Positions 263-27,070 of a stretch of 64,000 bases of DNA are shown one piece after another. The notes below the pieces were generated by a model that was not told the DNA's origin, made no database searches, and was given only the letters and a program-made list of their open reading frames with translations. The first letter of the stretch is position 1, and each line of letters starts with the position of its first letter. Source of the stretch: Candidatus Peribacter sp. (GTDB lineage: Bacteria > Patescibacteriota > Gracilibacteria > Peribacterales > Peribacteraceae). The position numbers were made by a program, and so were the translations under genes. Where the stretch lies: the NCBI GenBank assembly GCA_030647195.1, contig JAUSKD010000003.1:28724-92723 (forward strand), read 5' to 3'.

Positions 263-660
263 AACTCTCGTCGCCAGATTCCGTAGCAACCTATTAGAAG
301 CCCTTATACAAACACTGCCCCATTTCGACTATAAAGGGACGTAAAATGCCCGATAACAGCACTAGGGGCTTTAGCGCAGCAGCTAGAGGCGTTTCCAAGA
401 CGTATCTACTCCCAATTACGAGGCTAGTACGACTTTTGGCAAAAGTGATAGGTCTGAGATTTCAGAGAGTCAGCATATAACAATGACACAATTACTTCTT
501 ACCCCATTATTTATGGACACAAGTTAAACACCATCGGCACGGTCGCTCTCGAAAACCGCAGTTATCAATCCACATACAGAACGCTAAGGAACGTTTTTGT
601 GTCCCGACCCCAAACAAACATTTAATTTCCAATTTTTTATTTCCCAATTTCCTAATTTCT

Positions 661-1002: not shown

Positions 1003-1062
1003 CTGGCTTGATGTTTTATGGCTTCCCAAAGCCATATATACTTACTTGTTGCCATTCATTCC

Positions 1063-3235: not shown

Positions 3236-3369
3236 ACAGCCGATTGCTCTACCATTGAGCTACAGGGGACCGATGCATGCAAAGAACAGGACAGTCACTG
3301 ATGTACGACTGGCGTCAGTATACGGATACCCGGCTGAGAAGAAATAGTGAAAAACATCGGATATTCTTC

Positions 3370-4638
3370 CTATTTCCTCTTCTTCGGTATCAGCAGCACG
3401 ATTTCGCGTCCCACGTACTGATCCGGGCGGCGGTAGAGGAGCGAGAGTCGTTCTGCACGGCTGGGCGCTATGCCCGGGGGGAGCGTGGCCATGTATCCGG
3501 CACTGTGCGCGGCATCCCACGCGCGATCGAGAAATATCGTCTCATTCTTGATCTTCCAGAAGGGCCACGTGAGTGCGAGTGGGACCCCGGGGAGCGTCTT
3601 GCTACAATTCTCGATGAAGGCAGCCTCCAGCTTCTCGAGCTCCGTCTTGATTTTGGCGGCGGACTTCTGCGACGGGCGGTCTTCGAGGGCGGGGCCGAGC
3701 GTCGTCTCGCTCACGACGATATCCGGCAGTTTCTTTAAGACAAAGGGCTTGGTGGCATCCTGTTTCCACACCAGAGAGTCCGTGTCCTTTTTGAGGATCT
3801 TCATCTCCTTGCGCAGCCATTCGATGTTCTTCTCACTGCCATTCACCGCCTTCTGCATGAGGTCAGAGGCCAGCACGTGCCATCCGCGTACCAGACACTC
3901 GAGCGGGATCACGCCCGTCCCACAGAAGGGATCAAGCACAGTCAGAGGTTCAGATTTCTTCGCTTTCTTCAACACGAGATCCGGAACGGGAGTCTGGCCG
4001 CCGCGGCCCAGCCACGCGCCCAGATTGAGCAGGATCTGTGCGAGCTTGGGTGGCAGCAGCCCCACCGTCGTATCGCGCACGGGTTTGCCGATATCCCGCT
4101 TCGTGTAGGCGTTCACATCCTGCGCGGCCACGGTGCGGCCGACCCAGAGTGTTCTGTTTTCCTCTTCGTCACCCTCGTAGAGCAAAACAAGCTCGCACCC
4201 ACGCTTGGGATCGAGTAACCCCGCGTCGCGCAGGAGCACGGTCGCCGCCGGTTCGCGTTCGCTGCCGACGTAGCGGCAGGGGCGTCCCTGCTTTCTGAGC
4301 GACTCCTTGCACTGGCGGTAGAGAGTGTGGATCGTCTGTCTGGGCATCAGGAAGGTGCGCAGCGCGAACACGACCTTGCCCCGCTTTGCGTCTTTGAGTT
4401 CGCTCAAGAGGATGGAAGGCACTTCCGCGAGGGTCACCGCCTGATCCGTCACCCGCCGGGCCAAAATCACGATGCCGCCCAGCGTATCCAGGAATGCGCC
4501 GTCCAGTTCCACGGGACTCTCGAAGAGCACGATGGAATCATTGAGGAGCGAGCGGAAGACGAATCCCGGCACGGTGGCCGAGAGTTCGGCGAGGGAAATG
4601 CGTGGTTGGTGACCGAGAAAGGCGGCGTACGATGGCAT
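3370..4638 (-). CDS. SAM-dependent methyltransferase (Trm11/UPF0020-like, probably RNA-modifying)
   Basis: SAM-binding motif LDPFCGTGVIPLECL. The expected motif IV (D/N-PPY) is replaced by SETTLGP. Start moved to MPSYAAF (4638) because the upstream 30 codons lie in an intergenic repeat. Confidence 0.55.
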   Translation of the reverse strand: MPSYAAFLGHQPRISLAELSATVPGFVFRSLLNDSIVLFESPVELDGAFLDTLGGIVILARRVTDQAVTLAEVPSILLSELKDAKRGKVVFALRTFLMPRQTIHTLYRQCKESLRKQGRPCRYVGSEREPAATVLLRDAGLLDPKRGCELVLLYEGDEEENRTLWVGRTVAAQDVNAYTKRDIGKPVRDTTVGLLPPKLAQILLNLGAWLGRGGQTPVPDLVLKKAKKSEPLTVLDPFCGTGVIPLECLVRGWHVLASDLMQKAVNGSEKNIEWLRKEMKILKKDTDSLVWKQDATKPFVLKKLPDIVVSETTLGPALEDRPSQKSAAKIKTELEKLEAAFIENCSKTLPGVPLALTWPFWKIKNETIFLDRAWDAAHSAGYMATLPPGIAPSRAERLSLLYRRPDQYVGREIVLLIPKKRK

Positions 4639-4682
4639 CGCATGGCAGGATAGCGTTGCAGGGGATGTTCGTACAGCTGTTG

Positions 4683-4806
4683 AAGGATTCAGGATTTCAG
4701 GGAACCAGGATTGCATGGAAGATCTCAAGAAAACAGGATCTCAAGAGGACAATCGACCCTTTGGATCCTGATTCCTTCCCTGAATTCCTGCATTCCTGGA
4801 ACCCTG
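4683..4806. repeat. Imperfect inverted arrays of GGATTNCA / CAGGAAT-type 7-8-mers
   Basis: Left arm AAGGATTCAGGATTTCAGGGAACCAGGATTGCATGG (4683-4718). Right arm GGATCCTGATTCCTTCCCTGAATTCCTGCATTCCTGGAACCCTG (4763-4806) is its approximate reverse complement. The spacer holds the direct repeat GATCTCAAGA x2. Confidence 0.5.
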
Positions 4807-4832
4807 TCTCCTTCCTTTCACTGCAATCTCGT

Positions 4833-6242
4833 TTATTCTTTTTTCAGTTCCTCCCTCAACAGCAGAACCGTCAGCATCACCACCAGCGGCGCCAACTGCA
4901 CGAACCCGCGCGCGAGCCCGGTTTGCCTGAGCGCTTCCGTCGAGAGGGATGTGAAGAGAAAGAGCCCGACCTGCAGCAACACCGCTGCGAACACGAACAG
5001 CGAGAGGGGGGCAAGCACGGTGGAGAAGAGGCGCTTTCGTCCGAGCGCGATGAGGAGGAGCAGGAGCGGGAAGAGCAGATGCCAGTTGCCCTCGAAGAAC
5101 GTATTCACCCAGAGCACGTACACGACTCCCGGCTGCCAGCCGAAAGAGTAGCTGGAGGAAATTTCTTTGGCATTGCCGAACCCAAGGCCGTGCGTCCACT
5201 TGAAGAGCACCCACGGGAGCCCGATGGCCAGCAGCCAGCCTGCGACCCATGCGAGCGTGCCGGCGATCTCCCGGCGCGTCATCGGGTGCTGTCGGCGGAG
5301 GAACACGATTCCCGCTATCAGCACGGCGAGCAAGAGCGGCAGGTAGAGGACGAGTGCCTCGTTCTTCGTAAAGACGAGGAGTCCCAATGCAAGGGCGGAG
5401 AGACGCAGCAGGCTCCGGCGCCGGGGGATGTCGGTCTCCGTGAGGCCCCGTGTCAGCAGTCCTCCCGCGGCCAGCAGATGGGCCGAGAGGAAGACATCTG
5501 CGTACGCATTCATGCCATGGAAGAAGTAGAGCGGCAGGCTGGCGAGCAGGTACGTGCCCAGCAGGGCCCACTGCCACTGCGTGCGGTGACGCAGCGCGCA
5601 GTAGAGCAGGATCACCGCGGCGAGGAACCAGAGGGCATGGATGCTGTTCGCGAGACCCTCGTGCCACTGCCCGGCCAGTGAGGCGAGAGAGGCCTTGAAG
5701 AGCGGGACCGTGGGCGGGTAACTGCTCAGGGGGTTCGCTTGTTCTCCTCCCGCCGTTCCGACGTCGAGCGTGTGTGTGACGGAGAAGACCTTTGCGCGAT
5801 AGTTCCAGTTCTTGAGTGTGTCGTCGAAGTACGGGGGCGTCGTGACGAGGATGAACGAACCGAAGGCGATTTTGGCGAGGGTCCAGATCGTGAGGAGTAC
5901 GAGCAGGATCGTCAGCCAAAGAGGAGGGCGCGTTGAGGGCGTAGGGGGTAGGGTGTAGGGCGTAGAACGTGGGAAGAATTTCCACTGGAAGAAACCGGCG
6001 AGGACGAGCAGAAGGGTGAAGGCAACCTGCACAGAGAGGAAACCCAGTCGTGTGAAGAGGATGAATCCCGCAATGTGCGCGAGAAAGGTTACGAACATCG
6101 TCGCGGTCACCCCAAAGAGAAACCCCAGTGTCCAGCGTTCCAGCGTCATGAGCACGGGGTGCCGCCCCTCGCAGAGCCGCACGAGCAGCCAGCCGGATAA
6201 GGTGGGGAGCAGGAGGCCGACAGAGAACCAGAAGAAGATCAT
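4833..6242 (-). CDS. Polytopic membrane protein, GT-C-type (ArnT/PMT-like) glycosyltransferase candidate
   Basis: 469 aa with about 11-12 hydrophobic helices throughout. Its ATG overlaps the stop of the upstream gene (ATGA at 6239-6242). The family assignment rests on topology only. Confidence 0.45.
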   Translation of the reverse strand: MIFFWFSVGLLLPTLSGWLLVRLCEGRHPVLMTLERWTLGFLFGVTATMFVTFLAHIAGFILFTRLGFLSVQVAFTLLLVLAGFFQWKFFPRSTPYTLPPTPSTRPPLWLTILLVLLTIWTLAKIAFGSFILVTTPPYFDDTLKNWNYRAKVFSVTHTLDVGTAGGEQANPLSSYPPTVPLFKASLASLAGQWHEGLANSIHALWFLAAVILLYCALRHRTQWQWALLGTYLLASLPLYFFHGMNAYADVFLSAHLLAAGGLLTRGLTETDIPRRRSLLRLSALALGLLVFTKNEALVLYLPLLLAVLIAGIVFLRRQHPMTRREIAGTLAWVAGWLLAIGLPWVLFKWTHGLGFGNAKEISSSYSFGWQPGVVYVLWVNTFFEGNWHLLFPLLLLLIALGRKRLFSTVLAPLSLFVFAAVLLQVGLFLFTSLSTEALRQTGLARGFVQLAPLVVMLTVLLLREELKKE

Positions 6243-7510
6243 GGTTTGTTCGGGGGTTTCAGAGGAGCGGGCGGGGTCACGCGAAAAATGAAGGTGCCTT
6301 TCATGAATTCGTGGATGATCTGGCCGGTCGGGGAGATCGGTTCGCCATTCTCCACGATCCTGCCATCAGTGCTGAACGTGATGTCGGGCCGCTCGTAGAC
6401 GAGCCAGAATGTTGCACCCGACCCTTCCGCCGGGGTCACGGGTTGGCTGGGATACGTCTGGTAGCGCATGAAGTTCATGAAAGTGTCGGTGGTGGGGGCC
6501 AGCAGCACGTAACGCGGCTGGTCGGCCAGCAGACTGCGGCTCGCCGCGGCGAAATCGGGCAGGAAGTTGATGGTGCGGAACGTGCGCTTGCCGGCGGGTT
6601 CCCGAAGGTACGAGCGCACGTCGTACGTCCATGTCGCAAGCACTTCCGCTCCCATGCGGATGTCGAGTGCGACCCAGAAGATGAGGAAGAGCGTCAGCGT
6701 TCCGACGAGGATGCTCCTTCCGCGCCTGCCGCCCGATCTTCGCCACGCGCGGATGGAAAGTCCCGCTGCGCCGAGCACCAGGAGCGCATAGATCACGCGC
6801 ATGGCGGAGTGGGCGATGGGCGGCTGGTTCCTGTACAGATTCGCAAGGGAAACCGGCGTGGAGCAGAGCAGGGGGCCCCAGAAGAAGTTGATGCTGTGGG
6901 CCTTGAGACCGTCAAAGGCCCAGAAGCACTTCATGGCTTCGACCACCCGTTCCCCGACGCTCCAGCCCTTGAGCTCAACGCCGTGGAAGGTGATGTCGGT
7001 AGAGGGCGGCAGCTGGAAGCCGATGGCGCTGGCTCTTGGATCCCAGCCTCCGATGGCGCTCATGTCCACGATGATCGACGTGGAAGACGCGCTCGGCCTC
7101 AGCGTAATGGGAATCTGCAGGTACTGGCCGGCCGGGCTCCCCTTACTCTTCCAGATGAACGAGAGCGCCGCTCCCCGCGGGCTCGTGTAGTAGACGGTCA
7201 CCACCTGGACGCCGTACGACAGGGCGAGGGGGCGGGAGAGCGTACCTTTCTGCGTGGTCGAGATGTGAATGCCGTTTGAGAGCGGAGTGACCGGCGGCAG
7301 CCCCACGGTGTTCCACTGCGACTGTTCGGTTTGGCTGCCCAGACTCAGCATGGTCTGCTGCGCCGCCTCGGCAGCGATAGGCAGCGTGAGGAGGACAACG
7401 GCGAAGAGGAGGGAGCGACCACGCACGAGAAGAGTATACAGATGATTTGCGATTGAAAGATTTATGGATTTGCGATTTTCTCGTCTTTCCATCACTGACA
7501 AAAATCGCAA
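6239..7510 (-). CDS. Membrane or secreted protein of unknown function, translationally coupled to the GT-C-like gene
   Basis: N-terminal signal or anchor LLFAVVLLTLPIAAEA and C-terminal TM helices. The first ~20 codons overlap the GATTT repeat element, so the true start may be downstream. Confidence 0.5.
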   Translation of the reverse strand: MRFLSVMERRENRKSINLSIANHLYTLLVRGRSLLFAVVLLTLPIAAEAAQQTMLSLGSQTEQSQWNTVGLPPVTPLSNGIHISTTQKGTLSRPLALSYGVQVVTVYYTSPRGAALSFIWKSKGSPAGQYLQIPITLRPSASSTSIIVDMSAIGGWDPRASAIGFQLPPSTDITFHGVELKGWSVGERVVEAMKCFWAFDGLKAHSINFFWGPLLCSTPVSLANLYRNQPPIAHSAMRVIYALLVLGAAGLSIRAWRRSGGRRGRSILVGTLTLFLIFWVALDIRMGAEVLATWTYDVRSYLREPAGKRTFRTINFLPDFAAASRSLLADQPRYVLLAPTTDTFMNFMRYQTYPSQPVTPAEGSGATFWLVYERPDITFSTDGRIVENGEPISPTGQIIHEFMKGTFIFRVTPPAPLKPPNKP

Positions 7511-7529
7511 ATTTTGAAATCATCAAATC
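7444..7529. repeat. GATTTNN heptamer element, copy A (5 direct units plus 3 inverted units)
   Basis: GATT starts at 7444, 7451, 7459, 7467 and 7474. Inverted AAATC units start at 7502, 7517 and 7525. Homologous to copy B at 13933-13999. Confidence 0.6.
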
Positions 7530-7541
7530 GCCAATAGTTCA

Positions 7542-9347
7542 TTATTTTTCCTCTTGGGCCACGGTGATCTCTTTCGCGCCTCCTCCGAGCACTGCTTTGA
7601 TGCGCCGCACACCAGCCGAGGAGCTCTCTTCTTTCTGGATCTTGAATGTTCCAAGCATCCCCGTGCGGGCAACGTGAGGTCCGCCGCAGATTTCTTTGCT
7701 GAAGACTTTCTCCCCCTTGCCGACCACGTAGACTTTGACTTCGGCTCCGTAGCGCGCGTCAAAGACTCCTATCGCGCCCTCCTTCTTCGCACCTTCCACA
7801 TCCGTCACGTGGTAGGTCACGGGCAAATCCGCTGCAATCGCGCCATTCACCAGTTGCTCCACTTCTGTGATCTGCTCCGGCGTCATTTTGTCCGGATGAC
7901 TGAAGTCGAAGCGAAGCCGCTCCGCCGTAATGTTGCTTCCCTTCTGGAAGACGTGGTCGCCGAGGACCTTTCGGAGAGCGGCATCGAGCAGGTGGGTCGC
8001 CGTGTGCAGCTTGGTCGTTTCGCCGCTGTGATCCTGCAGGCCGCCCTTGAACTTGGCTTCCGCTCCGGCGCGCGAGAGCGACTGATGCTCCTCGAATTTC
8101 TTTTTGAATCCCTGCTCATCCACGGTGAGTCCCTTCTCGAGCGCGAGCTCCTTCGTCAGCTCCAGCGGAAATCCGTAGGTGTCGTAGAGGTGGAAGACCG
8201 TCGTGCCATCCATCTGTGTTCCTGTTTCCTGCACCGCCCGCTCGAACTGTTTCATCCCTTCTTTCAGCGTCCTGCCGAACTGCTCTTCCTCCCGTTTGAG
8301 GGCATCCAAAATATCCGTGCGTCGTTCCTTCAGTTTTTCGTATACGTGGCCGTACTGGGCAACCACCGTCTCGGCGATTGCAGGCGTGAACGTGCCGTCG
8401 TGTTCTATCTTCAGTTGCCGCGCGGAGCGGATGGCCCGGCGGATGAGGCGCCGCAGAATGTAGCCCTGATCCACGTTCGAGGGCAGAACGCCGTCGGCGA
8501 TGATGAACGTCGCCGCCTTGAGGTGATCCACAATGATGCGCAGATGCCGTTCATCCTTCTGGTCTGCCATCTGCATCACGCGGTCGAAAATCGGTTTCAT
8601 CCGGTCCGTCTCGTACACGTTCGCCGCCCCCTGCAGCACCCGGGCGATGCGCTCCAGTCCCATCCCCGTATCCACGTTCTGCTGCTTTAAGGGCTCGAAA
8701 GTACCGTCCGCCTTTTTGTTGTACTGCATGAAGACGTCGTTCCAGACCTCCATCCAGTCCGCGTCATGCGTCGCCGGGTTTCCCTGCGGCTTGCCCTTGC
8801 CCACCCAGTAGAACATCTCGGTATCGGGTCCGCACGGGCCGGTCTGCCCTGCCGGTCCCCACCAGTTGTTGGCCTTGGGCAGGAAGCCGATGCGCTCACG
8901 CGGCATGCCCATTTTTTCCCAGATTCCGGCCGACTCCTCGTCCTTCGGCGCGTCCTTGTCGCCTGCGAAGCACGTCACTGCCAGCATCTCCTTTGGAATT
9001 TCCAGGATCTCCGTGAGGAAGCGGTAACTCATGGAAATCGCTCCTTCCTTGAAATAATCCCCGAGGCTCCAGTTGCCCAGCATCTCGAAGAACGTTAAAT
9101 GTGACGCGTCTCCCACTTCGTCGATGTCCTGCGTGCGGATGCACTTCTGCACGTCCGTGAGGCGCTTGCCCGCCGGGTGCGCTTCGCCGAGCAGATAGGG
9201 AACGAGCGGGTGCATGCCGGCCGTGGTGAAGAGCACGGTCGGATCATTTTCGGGAATGAGCGAGGCGCCCGGGATCACGGCATGTCCCTGCCCTCTGAAG
9301 AAGTCCAGGTATGCCTTTCGAATGTCATCTGTGGTCATGGGAGGCAT
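7542..9347 (-). CDS. alaS: Alanyl-tRNA synthetase, compact form (601 aa) lacking a C-Ala domain
   Basis: N-terminus DIRKAYLDFFRGQGHAVIPGASLIPENDPTVLFTTAGMHPLVPY...FEMLGNWSLGDYFK. Editing-domain motifs HTATHLL and CGGPHV are present. The protein ends shortly after the editing domain. Confidence 0.9.
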   Translation of the reverse strand: MPPMTTDDIRKAYLDFFRGQGHAVIPGASLIPENDPTVLFTTAGMHPLVPYLLGEAHPAGKRLTDVQKCIRTQDIDEVGDASHLTFFEMLGNWSLGDYFKEGAISMSYRFLTEILEIPKEMLAVTCFAGDKDAPKDEESAGIWEKMGMPRERIGFLPKANNWWGPAGQTGPCGPDTEMFYWVGKGKPQGNPATHDADWMEVWNDVFMQYNKKADGTFEPLKQQNVDTGMGLERIARVLQGAANVYETDRMKPIFDRVMQMADQKDERHLRIIVDHLKAATFIIADGVLPSNVDQGYILRRLIRRAIRSARQLKIEHDGTFTPAIAETVVAQYGHVYEKLKERRTDILDALKREEEQFGRTLKEGMKQFERAVQETGTQMDGTTVFHLYDTYGFPLELTKELALEKGLTVDEQGFKKKFEEHQSLSRAGAEAKFKGGLQDHSGETTKLHTATHLLDAALRKVLGDHVFQKGSNITAERLRFDFSHPDKMTPEQITEVEQLVNGAIAADLPVTYHVTDVEGAKKEGAIGVFDARYGAEVKVYVVGKGEKVFSKEICGGPHVARTGMLGTFKIQKEESSSAGVRRIKAVLGGGAKEITVAQEEK

Positions 9348-9832
9348 GGATGGAGGGGGAGAGTCGGCTTGCCCGGCGAAGCTCCGAGCAGAGCGAGGTG
9401 CGAAGACGGGTCGTCATGTTGCGCATGTGCGGCAAGGATATCAGAAGGATGGGAGATCGACGGATGTTTTTCTCAATTTCACCAATGTGCCTCTGGTGAT
9501 GACAAAAGGAGTGATCTATCCCTCGTTGAAGGAAATATGAACCCGTTTCTTCCGTCAGGGGGCTAGGGCACCTTGCCACGCCCGTACCGAACGTCGGTAC
9601 GTTCGGGCGGGTTCGGTTCCCTAAGCCCCCCGACACCCCCTTTACCCTCCTAACAGTACACCGCATCAACCATACAACTATTTCATTGTTAGATACCCAC
9701 ACGTGCTCAACGGATGTATGTGTTTCTGTACTGATTTGTTCCTGTTTTTTGTATATGTTTTTCTGTTTTGTTGCTGTTCTTCTGCTATGGCAGGAATGGC
9801 AGTTTTTTGCTATAATAAGCGCAATACACACT

Positions 9833-11278
9833 ATGAACTTCTCTACGCCCTCTCTACGGCGCCCTTCAGCCCTTTTGTCGTGGAAGATCGTTCTGTTGCT
9901 CGGGGTGACTCTGGCGGTGGTGGCGGGAGCGTGTGTCTTCTTCTTCCTGCACAGCAGGGGCATCATCGACCATCTCGTGAAGGATCGTCTGCGCAACGAA
10001 GCGGCCATTGCCGCGCTGAATTTCACCGGAGAAGAACTAGCGTCCATTCATACGCAGGCGGACATGCAATCCCCGGAATTCGGGGCGCTCGTCTGGCGGC
10101 TCAAGGATATCCGTGCGCGCACGCCGCAGATCCGTTTCGCGTACATCATGCGCCGCACGGCGGATCCGGACATGCTGGAATTCGTGGCGGATGCCGATGC
10201 GCTCAGTTCCGTCGAAGAGCTCGATGCCAACAAGAACGGGGTGCTCGATACATCGGAAGAGCCGGGACTGCCGGGGGATTTGTATCCCATTACGGACATG
10301 ACGGCGCTTCAGTCGGCGGCGTTTGTGGCGCCCACGACCGATGAAAAAGTCACACTCGATCAGTGGGGATACTCGCTCTCGGGCTACGCGCCGATTTTTG
10401 ACGCGAGTGGCAAGGTGGTCGCTGTGCTCGGGCTCGATATGCTGGCGGAGGATTACGCCGCCATCCTGCAGAGCATCTTCTCGCTGCAGGCCATGCTGCT
10501 GATGCTGCTGGGCGGGATTCTGATTACGTTTTCGGTGATGGGCTTTGTTCTCCGTCACCGCATGGACGAGATGAATCATCTCGATGATGAGCGTCGCTGG
10601 CTGCTGCAGCTGATCCTGCACCAGGTGGGAACGCCGCTCACGATTTTCAAGTGGGGGGTCGAGTCCCTGCAGGACATGCTGCCGCGCCTGCCGGAATCGG
10701 CGAAGGCGGAAGTACAGGAAAACACACTCATTTTGGAAGACGGCGTCTCACGCCTCGATCACGTTGCGGAAGTGCTGCTGGCGGCTGACCGTATTCAGGA
10801 GGGGAGTATGCAGATGGCGCAGGAGCGCGTTTCGCTGCGCAGCGTCATCAATGAAACCGTTGCCGGGATCGAGCCCCGCCTTCAGAAGCGCGAACAACAG
10901 GTGCGGGTGGACATGCCGGAGGATGCCTGGCTGCACCTGGACCGGCGTCTGCTCGCGGGGGTGCTGCGGGAGCTCCTCGACAATGCGATGGTGTATTCGC
11001 CGAAGAGCGGCGTGATTTCGATTCGAGTGGTGCGGAAAAACAAGCATGTGGAAGTCAGTGTGGCTGATCAGGGCGCCGGCATCCCGCCCGAAGATCTCTC
11101 GCGTGTATTCCAGCGCTTCAGCCGCGGTTCCAATGCGGGCAAGTTCGATCCCAACGGGACGGGAGTGGGTCTGTACATTGCCAAAGGCATCATCGAGCGT
11201 TTCGGCGGCAAGATCGCACTGCACTCCGTGGAGGGGGAGGGTACGACGATCACCTTTTCCCTTCCGATTACGCAGTGA
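9833..11278 (+). CDS. Sensor histidine kinase with an N-terminal TM anchor
   Basis: H-box LHQVGTPLT and HATPase motifs LLDNAMVYSP, DQGAGIP, GTGVGLYIAKGI. Start moved to MNFSTPS (9833), which is preceded by TATAAT at 9811-9816. Confidence 0.8.
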   Translation: MNFSTPSLRRPSALLSWKIVLLLGVTLAVVAGACVFFFLHSRGIIDHLVKDRLRNEAAIAALNFTGEELASIHTQADMQSPEFGALVWRLKDIRARTPQIRFAYIMRRTADPDMLEFVADADALSSVEELDANKNGVLDTSEEPGLPGDLYPITDMTALQSAAFVAPTTDEKVTLDQWGYSLSGYAPIFDASGKVVAVLGLDMLAEDYAAILQSIFSLQAMLLMLLGGILITFSVMGFVLRHRMDEMNHLDDERRWLLQLILHQVGTPLTIFKWGVESLQDMLPRLPESAKAEVQENTLILEDGVSRLDHVAEVLLAADRIQEGSMQMAQERVSLRSVINETVAGIEPRLQKREQQVRVDMPEDAWLHLDRRLLAGVLRELLDNAMVYSPKSGVISIRVVRKNKHVEVSVADQGAGIPPEDLSRVFQRFSRGSNAGKFDPNGTGVGLYIAKGIIERFGGKIALHSVEGEGTTITFSLPITQ

Positions 11279-18944: not shown

Positions 18945-19346
18945 GGGGATGATTTGGTTTCGACAGCGTGATACTGGTGGAGTTTCGCTTCTGTTCGGGA
19001 GGGCAACGGTTCCCGCACCCACTGTTGCAAACAATATCTGCCACTGCAGATGTACCGGCGGTCTTTAAGAAGGCGTTCGCGAACTTCACGTTTGCGCCCG
19101 CATTCGCACTGGCTGCCTAAGTCCGTTTCATGCGGACACGTCTCACTCTCGATTCTCGCTACAGGGATGAGGCGTAATCAGCGAGGCAGCGTCGCCGTCT
19201 GATGTCGCGGTGACGCGGTCAACCAGGCATCATCCCTCGCACCTTTCTCTGCTCTTCTCTTAGGGCTGCGAGTACGAGAAGTCCATGACAGCACAAGCAG
19301 CTTCGCTACACGTTGGACCCGGGTTCGATTCCCGGCATCTCCACCA
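18945..19346 (+). ncRNA. ssrA: tmRNA (transfer-messenger RNA)
   Basis: The 5' end GGGGATGATTTGGTTTCGACAGCG and the 3' end GGACCCGGGTTCGATTCCCGGCATCTCCACCA form the tRNA-Ala-like domain. The internal tag frame ends ...FAPAFALAA-TAA (stop at 19118-19120). Confidence 0.9.
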
Positions 19347-19542
19347 TCAACTTCCATAAGAACGACTTTTTGGCTTGCAGAAGACAAGGAAGTTCGACTG
19401 CTCCCGGAAGGTCTTCTCGGGGCAAAAATTGGATTTTGTTTATCTGAAGAGCAAAAGTCGGTTCAAATACCGCTAGCTCGAACTAAGGAGAGCTTCAGAT
19501 TTGTGCAAGGAATTGACGCAAAAGACGTATAATTAAGTTCAA

Positions 19543-20619
19543 ATGATTACAATTACACCTCTCAAAGACAGGAGAATGAATTGGATGAGATCAATTGATC
19601 GCTTAGAAGGCGCTCAAGAGACATACCATGAAAATTGTGAATTGAAGTCTGATTGCTGGATTCCAGGAATTGGAGAATATGCCAATGGTTTCCTGCTCTG
19701 TGGAGGAATTGCAGAGATGAATAAGGATGGTGGCCAGCATTCGTACATTTTGAAGTTGGAATATGCGACTGGGATGGAAGAAACAATAGAAGCTGGAAGA
19801 CGCGGGATTGACCTCTGGCCTTCCAGGGAAATCATTTCTTTGATGTCCCTGCATTTGCATGCAAGGTTTTTCTTATCTTCAACTACAACAGACACCCTTA
19901 CAAGCTCGGGAATTCCGTCACGGACACATCATAAATTTATACAGGGATCATATAAGTTTGACGACGATTCTTTTGTTCCTGATTTGTTTAAGGACAAAGG
20001 CAATCTAACAACGCTTGCTAGTTTTTTAGATGAAATTAGGAATATTCCAGACAGATATCACCGAGATTTAATTTATGCGATCTATAACTACGCTGATGCT
20101 ATTCGCTGGATAGGTTTCGATGAAAAAATCACGTACTTAAAATTGATAATTGCGGTAGAAATTTTGGCAGGTGATGACGAAGAAATTCATGATGAACTGA
20201 ATCTTGAACTCCAAAATAACAAATCTAGAATTCCTGAAGAACTTGCAAAAGAGGTATCGGAATTTCAAAAACAGAGGCGAATCAAAAAGAGCTTCATACA
20301 ATTCATTATGGATCACAAAACAGATTTTCTAGGTTCTCGTAAAAAGACGGATATGTATGTAACAGATGAAAACATTGATAAATATTTAGCGGCTATCTAC
20401 AACAGCAGATCAAATTACATCCACGAAGGTAGACCAATGACAATTAGCTCTCTGAGTCATTATGATTGGGATGTTAGCCCGGGGAAGACAATTCGAGGCA
20501 CTTTGGAGACAGGTGAAAACGAGCAAATTCCCACTGCAGTATTTTTTGAATCATTAGTTCGGCACTGCTTGTTACAATATATCGAAAAGCTGAGGATCCC
20601 TAAACCTACAAAGATTTAA
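19543..20619 (+). CDS. HEPN-like (Rx4H) protein, ApeA/Abi-like putative RNase
   Basis: 358 aa. The C-terminal helical region carries IYNSRSNYIHEG, an R-x4-H motif at 20407-20424. The 3' end overlaps the res 3' end by 14 nt in convergent orientation. TATAAT at 19528-19533 lies 9 nt before the ATG. Confidence 0.4.
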   Translation: MITITPLKDRRMNWMRSIDRLEGAQETYHENCELKSDCWIPGIGEYANGFLLCGGIAEMNKDGGQHSYILKLEYATGMEETIEAGRRGIDLWPSREIISLMSLHLHARFFLSSTTTDTLTSSGIPSRTHHKFIQGSYKFDDDSFVPDLFKDKGNLTTLASFLDEIRNIPDRYHRDLIYAIYNYADAIRWIGFDEKITYLKLIIAVEILAGDDEEIHDELNLELQNNKSRIPEELAKEVSEFQKQRRIKKSFIQFIMDHKTDFLGSRKKTDMYVTDENIDKYLAAIYNSRSNYIHEGRPMTISSLSHYDWDVSPGKTIRGTLETGENEQIPTAVFFESLVRHCLLQYIEKLRIPKPTKI

Positions 20620-22870
20620 GTTCAGATAGCACGTCTTCAGTGTTCTTATTGTGGACAAGAAAGAAATGTAGCTTTCCCTTGCCCAATTTTGCCCACATTT
20701 CACCAATCTTTACTTTGTAAGCTGTATCTTCATTACTTATGCGATCTTCACCTTTCCACTCCAAAGCCACCACAGCCCCTTTCTTGGTTACAGCGATGAA
20801 GTCAGGATAGAACTTGTTTTTCTGCCATCCCTGAATGTAAAAAGGGTCTTTTTTCTCCCTGCTTCTGATCCAAAAATCAATGTTTGGGAGCGTATCTAAA
20901 TCCAAGCGTTCGACAAAGGAGAGCTCTTCTTTGTTAAGCTTATCAATTTTCTTATAGTAATTTTTATTGAAGTCTTGTGGTACTTCTTCAGCGATTGAAA
21001 TTGTTTTTGGAAAGGAATCAAAAGTCTTCGTTGTGATAGCTCCCTTTTTAGCAAGCTCATCAAAGCGTTTCCTGGCGTACTCTTGAAGAACTCCATTTAT
21101 CACTTTATCTAGCTTGTCCATGAGCAAATAGCGATTGACCGAAAGTTCAGAAAGAGAGTGTTTCTTGAGCTGTAAATCGACGGCCTTATCTATAAATTTT
21201 ACCTTGTCGCTCTTTTCAAGAATCGTGAAGCGCATTTTTTTATCAAGCCATTGTACTAACTCCCCCTTTGTGAAATTTTTGTCCTTATAAGTAAGTTTTA
21301 ACATCTGCTGTGCGCCTTTTATCCATTTGTCTTCTTTAATATCAATAACTGCACGACCATCGTTGTCATAATGAATTTCAAAATTAAAATTAGCATCTTC
21401 CTTAGCAAGCTCAAAATCTTCGCCGATCAAATCCTCAAAAGACAGTTTGTCACCATTGAGGCTGACCATCGGTGCTGCAAAATCTTTCTTTACAGCCCTC
21501 TCAATCTCTAATTCGTATTTCTGCTCCTTTTGAGAGGAGTTTAAAAGATCGAATCTACTATAACCATTCGTTTCAAGTCCTGAGATAATCTGCGTGGCAG
21601 CTTCGTTAAAGTTCCTCGCAGAAGCGAAAATATAACATCGGTTCAGATCCTCGTTACTCTTTCTCTTGGCATAAGGCATACGGATAATGCGACCAATAAT
21701 CTGCTCAACTGCAATCTTTGCGCCCACATTAGCAACGGAAATTAGAACATAGGCAAACGAGCAGTCCCAGCCCTCCGCAAGTGCGCTTACGGTAATTATG
21801 TAACGAACTTTGCATTTTTTACTAAAAAGATCGATTCCCTCTAGATCATTTCTTTCAGAAGTTTTGATAGCGATCTCATCTTCGGAAATTTTTGCGTTCA
21901 GCAAATATTCCTTAATCTGCTCAACCGTGACGCTTGGACTAGTTTTGCTTTTTGGCTGCGCTTGTATCAGCGCTATAGGACGGATGTATTCACCTTTAAG
22001 TTTTTTAGCTTCCTTTTCAAGTTCATTTCGCTTTTCAACACCTCTCGCAACAGAATTATTCCATTGTGTTGCACTCTCAAGAACAATAGGAATTTTCACC
22101 ATTTGCTCTTCTTTGAGTTCCGATGCAGAAATATCAACAAGGATATTGCTACCACCTCTCGGCGTAGCAGTGTATTCAATGACAAATGATGGATTAAGCT
22201 CTTTTAGAAAATCTATTGAAAGTTGGGTCTTTGTCTTATGACCTTCGTCAATAACTACCAATGGATTACTCATTCTAACTACATTTGCCAGTGAATTGAT
22301 GACTGTTTTTTGTTCATCCAATTCTAGCCCGTCGCTTTCCGTAATATTTTCGAAGTGGCTTAGTAAGGCACCATTTTCCTGATAAACTTTATATTTATTC
22401 TGCAAAGTCTTTTCTTTGCGGAAGGCATCCAGACTCGACACGATAACGCAGAGGTTATCTGTAATGTCCTCCTTACGGATGCGAAGAGCTTCTTCATTTG
22501 AAAAAACACGAACATTATTTTGGAAGGCTTCATCTAAAATCTGTCGATGCCAGTCGTTCCTATCTTTAAATTTTCTAAGGGTTTGTGTTTTGATCGCTTC
22601 AGACGGGACAAACCACATAATAATGCCGCGTTCCATTTTGTGCTTCAAAAGCTTTCCCATGATTTCATTCACTGCATTACAGCCAACGAGAGTCTTGCCG
22701 CCTCCGGTAGGAATCTTGATGCACACAAAGGGTACATCTCCGAAAAATTCGGCATTGTATGGTTGATTGGTTATCCCCATAAAAGCATATTTTGTTCCTA
22801 CGCGTTCCAGTTCCCTCAAGTAGTCCTTGAGGATATCGAGAGCCTTCTGCTGGTAGTTTTTTAAAATCAT
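20606..22870 (-). CDS. res: Type III restriction enzyme, Res subunit (SF2 helicase plus PD-(D/E)xK nuclease)
   Basis: Walker A KIPTGGGKT, DEAH-like VIDEGHK, motif VI QIIGRIIRMP and the C-terminal nuclease motif FYPDFIAV...ALEWKG. Confidence 0.9.
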   Translation of the reverse strand: MILKNYQQKALDILKDYLRELERVGTKYAFMGITNQPYNAEFFGDVPFVCIKIPTGGGKTLVGCNAVNEIMGKLLKHKMERGIIMWFVPSEAIKTQTLRKFKDRNDWHRQILDEAFQNNVRVFSNEEALRIRKEDITDNLCVIVSSLDAFRKEKTLQNKYKVYQENGALLSHFENITESDGLELDEQKTVINSLANVVRMSNPLVVIDEGHKTKTQLSIDFLKELNPSFVIEYTATPRGGSNILVDISASELKEEQMVKIPIVLESATQWNNSVARGVEKRNELEKEAKKLKGEYIRPIALIQAQPKSKTSPSVTVEQIKEYLLNAKISEDEIAIKTSERNDLEGIDLFSKKCKVRYIITVSALAEGWDCSFAYVLISVANVGAKIAVEQIIGRIIRMPYAKRKSNEDLNRCYIFASARNFNEAATQIISGLETNGYSRFDLLNSSQKEQKYELEIERAVKKDFAAPMVSLNGDKLSFEDLIGEDFELAKEDANFNFEIHYDNDGRAVIDIKEDKWIKGAQQMLKLTYKDKNFTKGELVQWLDKKMRFTILEKSDKVKFIDKAVDLQLKKHSLSELSVNRYLLMDKLDKVINGVLQEYARKRFDELAKKGAITTKTFDSFPKTISIAEEVPQDFNKNYYKKIDKLNKEELSFVERLDLDTLPNIDFWIRSREKKDPFYIQGWQKNKFYPDFIAVTKKGAVVALEWKGEDRISNEDTAYKVKIGEMWAKLGKGKLHFFLVHNKNTEDVLSELKSL

Positions 22871-22879
22871 AAAAATGGG

Positions 22880-24433
22880 TTAATAGACTTTTACTTCGTA
22901 TGGAATCTGCTTAAAAAGCACATTGTATTCGTCCAGTATTTTCTCATCAATCGTACAATTATCTGCATATACAATCTTTTTAGCTTCAGTCTTTCTCAAC
23001 TTTTTGAGGAAGCCTTTGTCTAAAATATTTTTACCCTTCTCTTTATAGATTAAATAATACTCAGTCTCATTGAGTTCACCGATGAAGTTTGTATCCACCT
23101 TAGTACGATCAATATTCGTCTGAGTTTCGGTGAAATAGATATAAGTGGCAAACTGATTAAAGTCACAAGATTCTTCTATTTGCCCATTTTCATTAAAAAG
23201 AGGTTTATCTAACTCGCAGTATTCAAAGCCATCTTTAAAATTGAATTTATCGATGGCCGTTTTTATTCTTTTAGCAGTGATATCTTTTGCAATCGCATCT
23301 TCCATTTCAATAAGAATAAACTTCCGCTTTCCACCATCCTCTTTATTTAACTGAAGTACTGCATGCCCTGTCGTACCAGAACCAGCAAAGGAATCTAAGA
23401 TTAGATCATCAGGGCCTGTGGAAATTTGCAATATGCGATTAATTAGTCTGATTGGCTTGGGTGTATCAAATAAATTTGCCCCAAGAATAGAGTCGATTTC
23501 TTTCTTGGCTTCATCGGTATGTCCAGCATCTTCATGCGGCCACCAGTTATGAGGAGTCATCCCTTGTCGCACCTCCGATAAAAATAATTTTAAGGCAGGC
23601 ACGGTATTATTACCTTTCACTCCCCACCACAAACGATTTTCTTGTATGTGTTTTTTATGAGCGTCTAACTCATATTTCCATGCTTTCTTTGTATTACGAA
23701 TAACCTGTTTTGTATTTGGATTAACAATTTCATAGCATAAATTTGGTCTTTTATCTGGGGATACTTGATTTAGATAATCAACAGCTTTCCATGGTCCACG
23801 AGGATCATTGTCTGGATTTGAGTAACGCTCGATTGATTCTGCAGTTCTTGGAAGAAGGCTATTTTGAAAATTTTCACTCTTAGAATAAACAAGGATATAA
23901 TCAATTATTGTCGCAATTCCTTTAAAATTATTACTCACACTATATTTTCTTTGCCATGTAATACATGCGCGAAAATTTTGTATGCCGAATATTTCATCCA
24001 TTATATGTTTCAATGAAAAGAGCTCGGCATCATCAATGCTTATAAAAATTGCACCATCGTCTCTTAGTAACTGTTTTAACAAGGAAAGCCTTGGATACAT
24101 CATGCAAAGCCATTTATCGTGTCGACACAAATCTTCTGATTCTCTCCCAACAACCTTGCCAAGCCATTTCTTTATTTTTGGAGAATTAACTTTGTCGTTA
24201 TAAACCCAGCTTTCATTGCCAGTATTGTAGGGAGGATCAATGTAGACACATTTCACTTTACCGCCGTAATAGGGCATCAGAGCTTTTAGTGCCTCAAGAT
24301 TATCCCCATGAATAATTAAGTTCTGTGAATCTTTGCCAACTGAGGCTGACTTGACCTTTTTAAGCAAACGAAAGGGAACCTCTTTGTCATGGTTCATTAC
24401 TGCTTCTTTGCCAATCCAGTTAAGAGTGGGCAT
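22880..24433 (-). CDS. mod: Type III R-M DNA methyltransferase, Mod subunit (beta-class amino-MTase)
   Basis: Motif IV VYIDPPYNTG lies N-terminal to motif I DSFAGSGTTGHA. The stop is 9 nt upstream of the res start, giving the typical mod-res order. Confidence 0.9.
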   Translation of the reverse strand: MPTLNWIGKEAVMNHDKEVPFRLLKKVKSASVGKDSQNLIIHGDNLEALKALMPYYGGKVKCVYIDPPYNTGNESWVYNDKVNSPKIKKWLGKVVGRESEDLCRHDKWLCMMYPRLSLLKQLLRDDGAIFISIDDAELFSLKHIMDEIFGIQNFRACITWQRKYSVSNNFKGIATIIDYILVYSKSENFQNSLLPRTAESIERYSNPDNDPRGPWKAVDYLNQVSPDKRPNLCYEIVNPNTKQVIRNTKKAWKYELDAHKKHIQENRLWWGVKGNNTVPALKLFLSEVRQGMTPHNWWPHEDAGHTDEAKKEIDSILGANLFDTPKPIRLINRILQISTGPDDLILDSFAGSGTTGHAVLQLNKEDGGKRKFILIEMEDAIAKDITAKRIKTAIDKFNFKDGFEYCELDKPLFNENGQIEESCDFNQFATYIYFTETQTNIDRTKVDTNFIGELNETEYYLIYKEKGKNILDKGFLKKLRKTEAKKIVYADNCTIDEKILDEYNVLFKQIPYEVKVY

Positions 24434-24486
24434 TTGAAATGAATTTTAGCTGTTTCTTGTCACTAATATAAGCCTAGATTTAACAA

Positions 24487-25209
24487 CTATAATTTTTTCT
24501 CCGTGATTAGCGGTGCCCAATCGATACGTGGTACCGAGACTTGAGCATGTCCAATCGTGGATAACAGCCGCAGCCTTGAATTAAGCCTGTGGTAGTCGAT
24601 CCAGTTTGTAGCTAAATCCATACTTTCAAAATAGGCAGTAGTTCCATCTCGAGAGCCCACAGCAACCTGCAGTGGATTGATACTTCCATTGGCTGTGAAG
24701 TCGTATAGCAATTTGTCGAAAGTGAGTGGCGGCTCGTGATCAACCGCACAGTTTTCTCGGACAATTAAATCGCCTGAGAATGGACAGGTGATCTTCAATG
24801 CTAGATGCGCATCCCGAAAGGCGCGAACGTCTTCGGTAACAGCGGTGCGTGCCGCATTTTTATAGTCCACAAGTCTTTGCGGCTGCAGCACTTTTGTTCG
24901 TTCTCCTCGGAGAAGCTTAATTGCATGATTGAAACTGATATCAATGATCGTGTTGTCAGAGAGCAAGAGCATGAAGCAGCGAGTCGCGTATTGTCCTGTT
25001 CTCTGAACTGTGATTTTCTTTATCCCTTTTAAAGCCTTATCCCCCCACTCGTCATGGTGCTGGAAGAGTTCAATAAGAAAAGGGAGATCTTCATCGGGAA
25101 TAGGCTGCCCATCGGCAATCTTTGCTATGATTTCTCTGCAACGCACTTTGATGCCGTCTTTATTGGAGAATTCTTCGCCAGCGATGGCATAGAAGACTTT
25201 TTCTGGCAT
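24487..25209 (-). CDS. DUF3223-like N-terminal domain fused to a putative HNH/His-Me-finger-like C-terminal domain
   Basis: The N-terminal pattern F..I.GEEFSNK....R..I........I.DEDLPFLIELFQHH....K...GIKKITV......RCF resembles the DCL/DUF3223 domain. The C-terminus has CAVDHEPP...WIDYHRLNSRLRLL...GH. It lies 53 nt upstream of mod on the same strand. Confidence 0.4.
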   Translation of the reverse strand: MPEKVFYAIAGEEFSNKDGIKVRCREIIAKIADGQPIPDEDLPFLIELFQHHDEWGDKALKGIKKITVQRTGQYATRCFMLLLSDNTIIDISFNHAIKLLRGERTKVLQPQRLVDYKNAARTAVTEDVRAFRDAHLALKITCPFSGDLIVRENCAVDHEPPLTFDKLLYDFTANGSINPLQVAVGSRDGTTAYFESMDLATNWIDYHRLNSRLRLLSTIGHAQVSVPRIDWAPLITEKKL

Positions 25210-25217
25210 GGTTGAGG

Positions 25218-25223
25218 ATTATA
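25218..25223 (-). promoter_or_regulatory. -10 box TATAAT (minus strand), 8 nt upstream of ATG 25209
   Basis: Plus-strand ATTATA at 25218-25223; no Shine-Dalgarno. Confidence 0.35.
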
Positions 25224-25301
25224 TAAGCTGTTCACGATTCTTTCTAGGGTACAGTTCTCTCTTGTCGATTAAGTTTTACCTACGTAAGATTGCAATTCCT
25301 T

Positions 25302-26567
25302 ATGAACCAAGATCAAACAATCCTTTGTCCAAGCTGTGGTAAACCAGTGCCTCTGACTGAGGCGTTGACGTCCAAGATCAGAAAAGAGCTAGAAGGCGAG
25401 ATGGCTGTTCAGGAGAAGCAGAAGGAAGCTGATCTATTAGCTAGAGAGAAGGAAATTAAACGTCAGGAAGAGGAGGTAGAGAAGCAGAAGAAGAACACCA
25501 ATGACGTGGTGCAAGAGAAGCTGGCTTCAGAGAGAGTGAAGCTTAAGCAGGAAGCAGAGAGAGAAGCTGAGAAGAAAGTGCAGTTGGAACTTAAAGATGC
25601 ACAGAGTCAGAACGAAGAAATGGCAAAGAAGCTAGAGGAGACACAGAAGAACGAGCTTGAACTTCGCAGAAAGACGCGCGAGCTTGAGGAGAAAGAGAAA
25701 AACGCGGACCTAGAACTTGAGCGACGATTAGCTGAGGAAAGAAATCAGGTATTCACTAAAGCAAAACAGGCATCAGACGAAGAGCATCGCCTTAAAGAAC
25801 TAGAGAGTGAGAAGCAAATGGACGGCCTGAAGAAAACAATTGATGAACTCCAACGAAAAAGCGAACAAGGCTCCATGCAGATTCAAGGCGAAGTCCAAGA
25901 GGAGGATCTGAAGGCCAGCCTACAACGCGCATTCCCGACAGACACTTTCACGGACGTGCCGACTGGAGTGCGTGGAGCTGATCTAATTCAGACAGTCGTA
26001 GCGCGTAACGGAACCATTGCGGGAACTATTTTGTGGGAAAGTAAGAACACCAAGCATTGGGGCGGTGACTGGCTACAGAAGCTCAAAGATGATCAGGTAG
26101 CGGCGAAAACCGATCTATGTGGCCTCATCTCGCAGTGTTTGCCGGAAGGACTTGTGAACTTCGGCTCTATGGAGAACGTCTGGGTCTCAGATTATAAGTG
26201 CGCTAGAGATGTTGCTGCAGTACTCCGGCATCACCTCATTGAACTTACCAAGTTGAAAGGAGTGCAAGTAGGGAGGGACGAAAAGATGGAAGTTATCTAT
26301 AGCTATCTTACGAGTCCTCAATTCAACAACCGAATGCAGTCTATAGTCGGAGCATTCCAAAGTATGAAAACCCAGCTGGATAAAGAGAAGATCGCAATCC
26401 AGCGAATTTGGGCTAAGAGAGAGAAGGAAATGGATCGTATGATTGGAAATACTGTAGGAATGTATGGTGACTTGCAAGGCTTGATGGGTGCAGCACTGCC
26501 AACAATTGCAAGTCTTGAATTGTCGGACGGGGAAGAGGCCTCTGAAGAAGAAGTCTCGGATCATTAA
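25302..26567 (+). CDS. DUF2130-like protein: N-terminal zinc ribbon, long coiled coil, C-terminal PD-(D/E)xK-like nuclease
   Basis: ILCPSCGKPV at the N-terminus, about 180 aa of E/K-rich heptad-like sequence, then GADLIQTV...ILWESKNTK (D...ExK). ATG at 25302 preferred over the TTG at 25290. Confidence 0.55.
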   Translation: MNQDQTILCPSCGKPVPLTEALTSKIRKELEGEMAVQEKQKEADLLAREKEIKRQEEEVEKQKKNTNDVVQEKLASERVKLKQEAEREAEKKVQLELKDAQSQNEEMAKKLEETQKNELELRRKTRELEEKEKNADLELERRLAEERNQVFTKAKQASDEEHRLKELESEKQMDGLKKTIDELQRKSEQGSMQIQGEVQEEDLKASLQRAFPTDTFTDVPTGVRGADLIQTVVARNGTIAGTILWESKNTKHWGGDWLQKLKDDQVAAKTDLCGLISQCLPEGLVNFGSMENVWVSDYKCARDVAAVLRHHLIELTKLKGVQVGRDEKMEVIYSYLTSPQFNNRMQSIVGAFQSMKTQLDKEKIAIQRIWAKREKEMDRMIGNTVGMYGDLQGLMGAALPTIASLELSDGEEASEEEVSDH

Positions 26568-27070
26568 TCATGAGAAATAAGTGATATTCTCCTAGATCTC
26601 TACTTGCTATTTTTTCGTTCAGGAGCAACTTCGCTTGAATATCTTTGCAAGGTAATTCTATGGTCTTTCTACTATGGCTGACTTCAGAGACCAACTCCCC
26701 AAGAAATACAAAGACGTCGACTTCACCAATGCGATTGCACTTCTTGTCTTAATGCAACAGATTCAAGAACAACAACCTCTCTCAGATCCAGATGTCGTCG
26801 TTATCGACAGAGATGGGGAATGGTTGTACTAAGTTCGGAATTACTCCCGGAAGCTCTTTGACGAAATAGGGATCACATGACTAATGCAAATGGCAATGGA
26901 GTAGAGTTACGAAGAGCCGAAATGATCATATCCAATGTTTGCTTCAGTCCAAGAAGTGTTTTACTTGCGGTAACTGCATCGGTTTTGAGAGTATTGTTTA
27001 GTTCGGAATTGGTACCGAATGCTCCACCATCTTTATTATTATTCCTTCATCATTCTTCATCTCCCTCTGC

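Follow-up and report, generated by a model that had tools for sequence, protein, structure and literature searches.

That restriction-modification (R-M) systems can have second-line effectors linked to them, and that defence genes can be nested within other defence systems, are both established ideas. They form the background to the locus reported here, a five-gene cluster around a Type III R-M system in Candidatus Peribacter sp. (GenBank assembly GCA_030647195.1, contig JAUSKD010000003.1, forward-strand positions 28,724 to 92,723). The whole of this 64,000-nucleotide (nt) stretch is referred to as the window, and coordinates are those of the window unless another locus is named. Type III R-M is characterised by ATP-dependent cleavage that requires two inversely oriented unmethylated sites and by hemimethylation by the Mod subunit. 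Metal-independent RNase activity is a criterion of the HEPN superfamily, and RmuC, a DNA recombination protein, has a coiled coil at its N-terminus and a PD-(D/E)XK nuclease domain behind it. At least 16 HEPN clades are linked to R-M systems, and four features define HEPN proteins: helix 3 ends in an Rx4-6H motif, the arginine of this motif is followed by a polar residue, helix 2 carries an acidic residue, and inserts separate helix 2 from helix 3 (PMC3710099). In HEC-08, which combines DUF3644 with zinc fingers, the histidine of the Rx4-6H motif is essential (bioRxiv 10.1101/2024.01.29.577857). HamC is carried by 379 Hachiman systems, one three-gene example of which protected against phage (PMC8565338), and DUF2130 has been classed within the PD-(D/E)XK nucleases (PMC3424549).

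The five genes, termed g1, res, mod, g4 and g5, lie inside a foreign block of 7.7 kb (~19,347-27,030). We read this block as a defence island that was acquired horizontally at the hot spot formed by ssrA and built from separately mobile modules with the roles proposed below for each, and not as a five-gene machine; the probability given to this reading is roughly 0.6. The features of the region are the following.

18945..19346, + strand: transfer-messenger RNA (tmRNA) gene ssrA (ARAGORN; Rfam RF00023, 89 bits, E 4e-34)
19347..19542, no strand: left junction, where 19391-19415 resembles the T-arm at the 3' end of ssrA in degenerate form (alignment, repeat family D1)
19543..20619, + strand: g1, 358 amino acids (aa), predicted RNase effector of an unannotated family (open reading frame (ORF), invariant residues, AlphaFold2 (AF2) model)
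20606..22870, - strand: res, predicted Type III restriction subunit, 754 aa (PADLOC REase_III 8.8e-90; Pfam ResIII 4.4e-12)
22880..24433, - strand: mod, predicted Type III methyltransferase, 517 aa (PADLOC MTase_III PDLC03644 6.8e-186, residues 1-516; Pfam N6_N4_Mtase 5.9e-40)
24487..25209, - strand: g4, HamC-like or 'DCL family' protein, 240 aa (Pfam DUF3223 2.7e-12, residues 25-97; PADLOC HamC PDLC00205 1e-20, residues 13-218)
25210..25289, no strand: divergent intergenic region between g4 and g5, with a sigma70-like site TAGAAA-17-TATAAT on the - strand at 25246-25218 (consensus match only)
25290..26567, + strand: g5, DUF2130 protein, 425 aa (Pfam PF09903 5.9e-60, 253/255 model positions)
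26568..27030, no strand: right junction, low in guanine plus cytosine (GC) and non-coding, with two degenerate T-arm-like copies at 26832-26858 and 27000-27031

All five ORFs were present exactly, with the strands and coordinates given in a first-pass annotation of the window, and its spacings were likewise correct: the convergent genes g1 and res share 14 nt, gaps of 9 nt and 53 nt separate res from mod and mod from g4, and the divergent gap between g4 and g5 spans 80 nt to the TTG start of g5 or 92 nt to the next ATG. The annotation had further proposed that the five genes form one composite defence system, and here the comparison with related loci pointed the other way. The nearest homologues of g1 (80%), g4 (75%) and g5 (87%) were all found in different neighbourhoods, and none of their loci had the other four genes intact, the sole trace being a 3' remnant of res beside the g1 relative. 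DNA homology as detected by blastn stopped at the gene borders, except at g1. Neither the five-gene set nor any two of the three extra genes together occurred in any of the ~110 related loci examined. Two compositional classes were also evident, with a GC content of 0.36-0.39 for g1, res and mod (20001-24000) compared to 0.465-0.47 for g4 and g5 (24001-27000), which suggests at least two acquisition events. One obligate system of all five genes is on this evidence, and on that of the housekeeping contexts of DUF2130 genes described below, very improbable, even with the short gaps, the nuclease-type signature in each extra gene and the foreign nature of the whole block in its favour. The gene identities, the motifs, the mosaic ancestry and the recurrent neighbourhoods are direct observations, while we infer every biochemical activity and whatever coupling the modules may have.

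The block is set off from its surroundings by composition. The GC content was 0.35-0.47 across 19,001-27,000 as opposed to ~0.60 in the flanks and the window, and the drop started directly 3' of the tmRNA gene, the island beginning immediately past the 3' CCA end of ssrA. At the opposite border, the copy at 27000-27031 terminates in CTCCACCATC, as does ssrA. No integrase was found in the island, and tmRNA was the only non-coding RNA found there with Rfam. The best match of the ssrA 3' end at the right border was an exact repeat of 10 nt, and because shuffled sequence also reached this length no defined attachment sites (attL/attR) are claimed. Three degenerate look-alikes of the tmRNA T-arm and 3' end (AGTTCG...CCCGGAAG...) were observed, one of them near the left end and the other two on the right side of the island. 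These copies may be relics of successive integrations at ssrA, although they are statistically non-significant. A further stretch of reduced GC content (0.43-0.50 compared to ~0.60) was seen at positions 1-3000 of the window and may be another foreign segment.

About 110 nt upstream of g1 (from 19434) accompany the gene in a 62%-identical relative (blastn, loci L006/L007), and the promoter of g1 therefore probably lies within this segment. Scans for promoters and terminators over the region gave site counts that were not above those of shuffled controls, and for this reason operon structure is only inferred.

At the centre of the island, mod and res are, as judged from their domains and motifs, a complete and intact Type III R-M system, in agreement with the first-pass annotation, with a full-length MTase_III match, REase_III and ResIII matches and intact motifs. 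The translation of mod contains YIDPPYNTG ahead of DSFAGSGTTG (FAGSG), which is the order of the beta class of N6/N4 methyltransferases. That of res, directly downstream, contains the superfamily 2 (SF2) helicase motifs PTGGGKT, DEGH, TATP and QIIGRIIR and a C-terminal PD...ExK nuclease motif (YPDF...ALEWKG), and its PADLOC matches were to REase_III models only, apart from a weak match to Cas3c. Both Mod and Res were singletons upon clustering at 90% identity. Simple-sequence repeats, which could indicate phase variation, were looked for in mod and none were found. Mod would methylate host sites, and Res, as an SF2 ATPase with a PD-ExK nuclease, would cut incoming DNA that is unmethylated.

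The product of g1 is probably an R-M-associated RNase effector. Library scans with g1 gave no match in Pfam, PADLOC, NCBIfam or PHROGs; isolated weak matches were obtained for some family members, and single members had sub-threshold Pfam matches to HEPN_Apea (0.0096), Abi_2 (0.0024) and RnlA_toxin_N (0.008). A word-indexed search returned two relatives only, while an exhaustive search returned 210 cluster representatives at E<=1e-3, mostly of ~360 aa. Y183, E206, R289, S290, H294 and P330 were invariant in a 60-member alignment (60/60), and the family shares the local motifs LVSAIE, IYxARSxYLHxGxPM and FFExLVRHCLL. The Rx4H signature that the first-pass annotation had pointed out corresponds to R289-S290-N-Y-I-H294, with an invariant polar serine after the arginine. 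In the AF2 model (predicted local distance difference test (pLDDT) 90, predicted template modelling score (pTM) 0.91), an N-terminal mixed beta/alpha domain (~1-140) is followed by a C-terminal helical domain with helices at 170-189, at 194-209 including E206, at 218-226 and 232-258 as an insert, at 278-295 and, after a hairpin, at 332-349. R289...H294 (RSx3H) is located at the end of the helix 278-295. Comparison of the invariant residues and the order of the AF2 helices with the published definition (PMC3710099) showed all four HEPN features to be present in g1. Searches of PDB sequences with g1, both with the single sequence and with a profile, gave no significant match (best E 0.068). A distant homologue from a Pseudoalteromonas replicon aligned to the g1 family profile with an hhalign probability of 97.8%. 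This protein is called 'HEPN domain-containing protein' by its source, and since it is itself without a Pfam or NCBIfam match the name is taken as a lead only. On balance we consider it likely that g1 belongs to the HEPN superfamily. It would then act as a metal-independent RNase, either stand-alone or as a second-line effector of the abortive-infection type coupled to R-M.

The neighbourhoods of g1 relatives were also examined. The 80% homologue (P0002, loci L001-L005) lies between Mrr_cat and MazG-like, RadC and SLFN-type helicase genes, with a related tmRNA gene ~1 kb off in the opposite orientation. The blastn homology between the g1 and P0002 loci extends from the ATG of g1 to 20707, that is 88 nt into res. 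Accordingly, a 3' remnant of res was present in L001 at 6560-6667 (- strand), comprising 36 codons with 78% aa identity to residues 719-754 of the window Res, and the same was found in L002-L005. In L001 the remnant adjoins the g1 homologue at 5407-6570, and the MazG-like, RadC and SLFN-type helicase genes now follow. As the relative keeps the last 36 residues of Res beside its g1 homologue, the g1/res junction is ancestral; by this comparison res-mod has been lost in the 80% relative and g1 has been kept intact, and g1 would have entered the island together with res-mod. The 62% homologue (P0003, L006/L007) lies in a 2-kb low-GC islet with no R-M nearby. A gene for a 287-aa protein without a family match follows it directly in the same islet (L006, 11104-11967) and is missing from the window; it may be the partner of the g1 homologue in that lineage.

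A further 80 g1-family loci were drawn from metagenomes, and here members were repeatedly found inside R-M operons. In L041 a g1-like gene (4181-5293) stands between a Type III mod (2510-4177) and res (5336-7552), with gaps of 3 and 42 nt. Five other loci (L032, L033, L040, L044 and L049) have an N6_N4 methyltransferase, RE_BsaWI, a g1-like gene and a second N6_N4 methyltransferase, the junctions of this four-gene operon being at most 4 nt in L049 (6046-9775); on the short contig L034 the second methyltransferase alone is visible, after the g1-like gene. A serine recombinase was observed ~1 kb upstream of the BsaWI-like operon in L033 and L049. HsdM-type methylases adjoin g1-like genes in L043, L097 and L100, and Mrr, present beside the g1 homologue in L001, is also found upstream of a g1-like gene in L027. 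Of the 144 non-redundant neighbours lying within two genes of family members, the most frequent were N6_N4_Mtase with 8 occurrences, N6_Mtase with 3, serine recombinase domains with 3-4, and RE_BsaWI, integrase and HEPN_AbiU2 with 2 each. DNA methylases are thereby the commonest class of neighbour (11/144), and no one partner is common to the whole family. The pattern is that of a portable gene resident in R-M operons, defence islands and small recombinase-borne elements. At least 16 HEPN clades (PMC3710099) and embedded autonomous defences such as HEC-08 (bioRxiv 10.1101/2024.01.29.577857) have been reported to behave alike.

These neighbourhoods bear on the suggestion, made in the first-pass annotation, of a back-up nuclease resembling PrrC. 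In its strict form g1 would be held inactive by the Res/Mod complex and freed as a suicidal RNase once a phage blocks restriction, so that g1, res and mod form a unit to which g4 and g5 are bystanders. The convergent overlap of g1 with res, their ancestral junction and a shared GC content of 0.38-0.39 (0.47 in g4 and g5) are consistent with this, as are the nesting of distant g1-like genes between Type III mod and res or within Type II operons and the fact that the same logic has been proposed for at least 16 R-M-linked HEPN clades (PMC3710099); yet the relatives in L001 and L006 are intact without res-mod, meaning that g1 is maintained on its own, and four R-M types are paired with g1 with no subunit in common, which disfavours a specific protein-protein interface. 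Genes embedded in defence systems are, moreover, usually autonomous (bioRxiv 10.1101/2024.01.29.577857). Coupling of this kind is therefore possible but doubtful. For g1 the PrrC analogy is a reasonable model with comparative support, in that relatives stand in or beside R-M of Types I-IV and a res remnant persists. Against it, g1 is without the ATPase of PrrC, is kept in close relatives that have no R-M, and is found with R-M types unrelated to each other, so that it is no less likely to act autonomously than to be coupled. Within the mosaic island, the best-supported functional link is that of g1 to R-M systems generally and, through shared ancestry, to the res gene of the window.

A second possible link involves g4. 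This protein matches four further PADLOC HamC models in addition to PDLC00205 and also the phage protein family phrog_28887, and 'DCL family protein' is the NCBI annotation name for HamC-like proteins. Behind the N-terminal DUF3223 domain lies a C-terminal domain in which C142, P143, D157, H158, W203, H207, R214 and S217 were invariant in all 13 aligned sequences. The DH..N..H signature proposed for g4 was upheld for D157-H158 and H207 (13/13), while no invariant asparagine was found in the alignment of 13 sequences and Pfam HNH gave no match in g4. 'HNH' is accordingly approximate and, with DH and H invariant and no asparagine, is retained as a hypothesis only. In the AF2 model (pLDDT 87) the N-terminal domain superposes on 2K0M (Foldseek, E 5.4e-6, N-domain only). 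The gene would be the first of a possible g4-mod-res transcript, as it is encoded on the same strand 53 nt upstream of mod with no terminator-like site between the two and a promoter-like site just upstream of g4; it may thus be co-transcribed with mod-res. Relatives of g4 were found in the following contexts.

P0005 (75%): no R-M nearby
P0009 (56%): convergent with Type I hsdR-hsdM
L018 (47%): OLD, Type III mod, res and then the g4 homologue, all on one strand
L026 (22%): immediately following Type I HsdR
Plasmid 'DCL family proteins': overlap with an upstream AAA ATPase in two cases, upstream of a UvrD helicase in one
Other g4-family loci: solitary, or among toxin-antitoxin genes, IS66, terminase and housekeeping genes

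Type I HsdR adjoins the g4 relatives in L009 and L026. The L018 locus (2935-10696) is on a Verrucomicrobiales contig, and its OLD-family nuclease matched PADLOC Old at 1.6e-204. Its Type III system is distinct from that of the window (Res 27% and Mod 45% identical), and its mod may be frameshifted, as the simple ORF caller missed the gene and tblastn alone found it. On two plasmids (CP115967.1 and NZ_CP082163.1; L114, 3692-6699, and L116, 3491-6693) the DUF3223 gene and the large AAA/SMC-like ATPase gene in front of it overlap at the stop codon of the latter, an arrangement that suggests a two-gene module of DUF3223 and AAA/SMC-like ATPase on plasmids. The Bradyrhizobium copy of these 'DCL family' genes was observed between MmeI-type R-M, AbiE and SbcCD-like genes.

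It could be argued that g4 belongs with mod and res in a single operon of three genes and that its HamC-like product is a genuine accessory subunit, acting as a second nuclease or sensor on the Res motor; this would be a new Type III variant analogous to Hachiman type II. The position of g4 upstream of mod, with the only good promoter-like site upstream of g4, the presence of a g4 homologue beside the res of the unrelated system in L018, the proximity of g4 relatives to HsdR, AAA ATPases and UvrD and the association of HamC with HamAB (PMC8565338) all argue for such an operon. The order of genes differs, however, with g4 upstream of mod in the window and downstream of res in L018, and solitary positions or housekeeping surroundings were seen for the 75% homologue and for at least 8 further loci. 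The GC content of g4 is furthermore unlike that of mod and res, and the promoter and terminator scans performed no better than on shuffled sequence. We regard this arrangement as unlikely. As a module of the island, g4 would instead serve as an adaptor or accessory effector, with facultative pairing to ATP-dependent motors such as Res, HsdR, HamB, AAA ATPases and UvrD, a functional link indicated more weakly than that of g1 to R-M.

The product of the third extra gene, g5, starts with a CxxC-bearing N-terminal part, continues as a long coiled coil and ends in a PD-(D/E)XK domain. The D..ExK signature named in the first-pass annotation was borne out, E204, D231 and E250-x-K252 being conserved in at least 95% of 120 homologues along with C13 and C16 at the same level; a nuclease-type signature is thereby present in all three extra genes. 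The database copy of g5 (P0166, 400 aa) begins 25 codons after the start of the longest ORF (window 25290-25365). The longer start is probably correct, as the shorter one would drop the conserved CxxC. The 87% homologues (P0167 and P0168) lie beside Dam-like methylases, with a serine recombinase farther along the contig, or beside unrelated genes, and blastn homology around them is limited to the gene itself. Relatives at ~50% identity are very common in candidate-phyla bacteria, where thioredoxin reductase, RsmB, recA, RNase Y and UvrD-type genes are the neighbours, one context recurring in 24 contigs. Since its more distant relatives are in housekeeping contexts, g5 is probably not a component of a system with the other genes, and no evidence was seen that it belongs to a defence system. 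It would be a coiled-coil PD-(D/E)XK nuclease of RmuC-like architecture, acting most likely in DNA recombination or repair or constituting an independent cassette, and would not be a dedicated partner of the other island genes.

Another reading is that none of the three extra genes is an immune gene. They could have piled up at the ssrA hot spot as a toxin or addiction module (g1), a homing-type or mobile-element nuclease (g4) and a repair gene (g5), and the serine recombinases or integrases near g1-family genes in about a dozen loci, the phrog_28887 match of g4, the occurrence of g4 relatives near IS66 and terminase genes and the housekeeping surroundings of g5 are all in line with this. Nesting of g1-like genes in R-M operons with junctions of a few nt is, on the other hand, the pattern that experimentally predicted defence genes (bioRxiv 10.1101/2024.01.29.577857), and Hachiman systems with HamC protect against phage (PMC8565338). 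A wholly non-immune origin of the three genes is thus rather improbable.

Several points weigh against the reading of the block as a defence island of separate modules. Roughly 80% of g1-family loci have no R-M gene within two genes and the same is true of most g4-family loci, and as many contigs of both families are short these adjacency rates are uncertain both ways. The baseline for enrichment around g1 and g4 consisted of general gene frequencies and not of matched defence-island controls. Pfam HEPN profiles gave nothing above threshold against the g1 family. Foldseek comparison of the AF2 models, a check suggested in the first-pass annotation, was informative for the N-terminal domain of g4 and gave no significant match for g1 or for the C-terminal domain of g4: the whole g1 model returned nothing with E<0.8 and no HEPN structure in PDB and BFVD, and the best match of the g4 C-terminal domain, the HNH structure 4h9d (E 1.3, probability 0.08), was at chance level. 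Real co-operation between the genes, beyond the reach of the present sampling, would likewise fit their tight packing and the 14-nt overlap.

With these points taken into account, the modular island remains the preferred reading, and the region illustrates cleanly how genes at an ssrA hot spot turn over one by one, with a remnant of res left in a related genome. The first-pass annotation held that no described system has this gene set, which is true but trivially so, as PADLOC sees a Type III R-M system and an orphan HamC-like gene only. With linked effectors and nested defence genes both established, the cluster taken together is a defence island of a familiar sort, and the novelty lies in the g1 family and in the association of HamC-like proteins with R-M rather than in the cluster as a system. 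The g1 family, which comprises ~210 clusters and is absent from Pfam, NCBIfam, PHROGs and PADLOC, is a good candidate for a new family of defences or toxins made up of one gene, on account of its confident unmatched fold, its HEPN-type signature and its repeated nesting in four R-M types. A bolder picture can be drawn, in which both families are portable effectors for ATP-dependent restriction and helicase immune complexes. The g1 family would form a new clade of HEPN-like RNases whose novel N-terminal domain is a sensor, nested in R-M operons of Types I, II, III and IV and licensed when the neighbouring restriction enzyme is inhibited or overwhelmed, and HamC-like DUF3223-DH...H proteins would dock on Res, HsdR, HamB, SMC-like AAA ATPases and UvrD as a shared nuclease or adaptor. 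If true, the window would show both plug-in effector add-ons on a single Type III system; we look upon this as a long shot.

Compared to known systems, mod and res resemble the EcoP15I/EcoPI type of Type III R-M in the order of mod and then res, here with a 9-nt gap, and in the DPPY and FxGxG motifs of Mod and the SF2 motifs and C-terminal PD...ExK of Res. The window Res is shorter than the Type III models (754 aa compared to 871-989), and just the N-terminal 435 residues of this Res align to them. In g5 the order of coiled coil and PD-(D/E)XK domain is as in RmuC, making RmuC an architectural analogue, with the differences that DUF2130 is a separate Pfam family and that g5 has an extra N-terminal CxxC. 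The likeness of g1 to PrrC-EcoprrI and to the R-M-linked HEPN clades (PMC3710099) lies in an Rx4H protein encoded against or inside R-M operons and in the logic of a second-line RNase. Unlike PrrC, g1 has no ABC-ATPase domain and carries a small, novel beta/alpha fold at its N-terminus (library scans, AF2), its family is associated with R-M of Types I-IV and not with one Type Ic system, and the gene is convergent to res and not nested. Assignment of g1 as a PrrC/RloC anticodon nuclease was rejected, no N-terminal fusion to an ABC-type ATPase being found. With HEC-08 and other 'embedded' single-gene defences g1 shares the principle of HEPN-type genes nested in multi-gene defence systems and acting autonomously (bioRxiv 10.1101/2024.01.29.577857), whereas its domain architecture is unlike that of HEC-08 and it matched no HEC or PDC model (PADLOC-DB 2.0.0). 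The alignment of g4 with the Hachiman type II protein HamC (PDLC00205) spans the full length, and the N-terminal domain of g4 falls on 2K0M, a solved HamC/DUF3223 structure. The neighbour of g4 is, in contrast to Hachiman type II, a Type III R-M system, and assignment of g4 to a Hachiman type II system was rejected as no match to HamA (DUF1837) or HamB was obtained among the five island genes. HamC-like proteins have hitherto been tied only to Hachiman type II; here they are also found beside Type III R-M, Type I subunits and other ATPases, and this range of contexts may help to explain the role of HamC.

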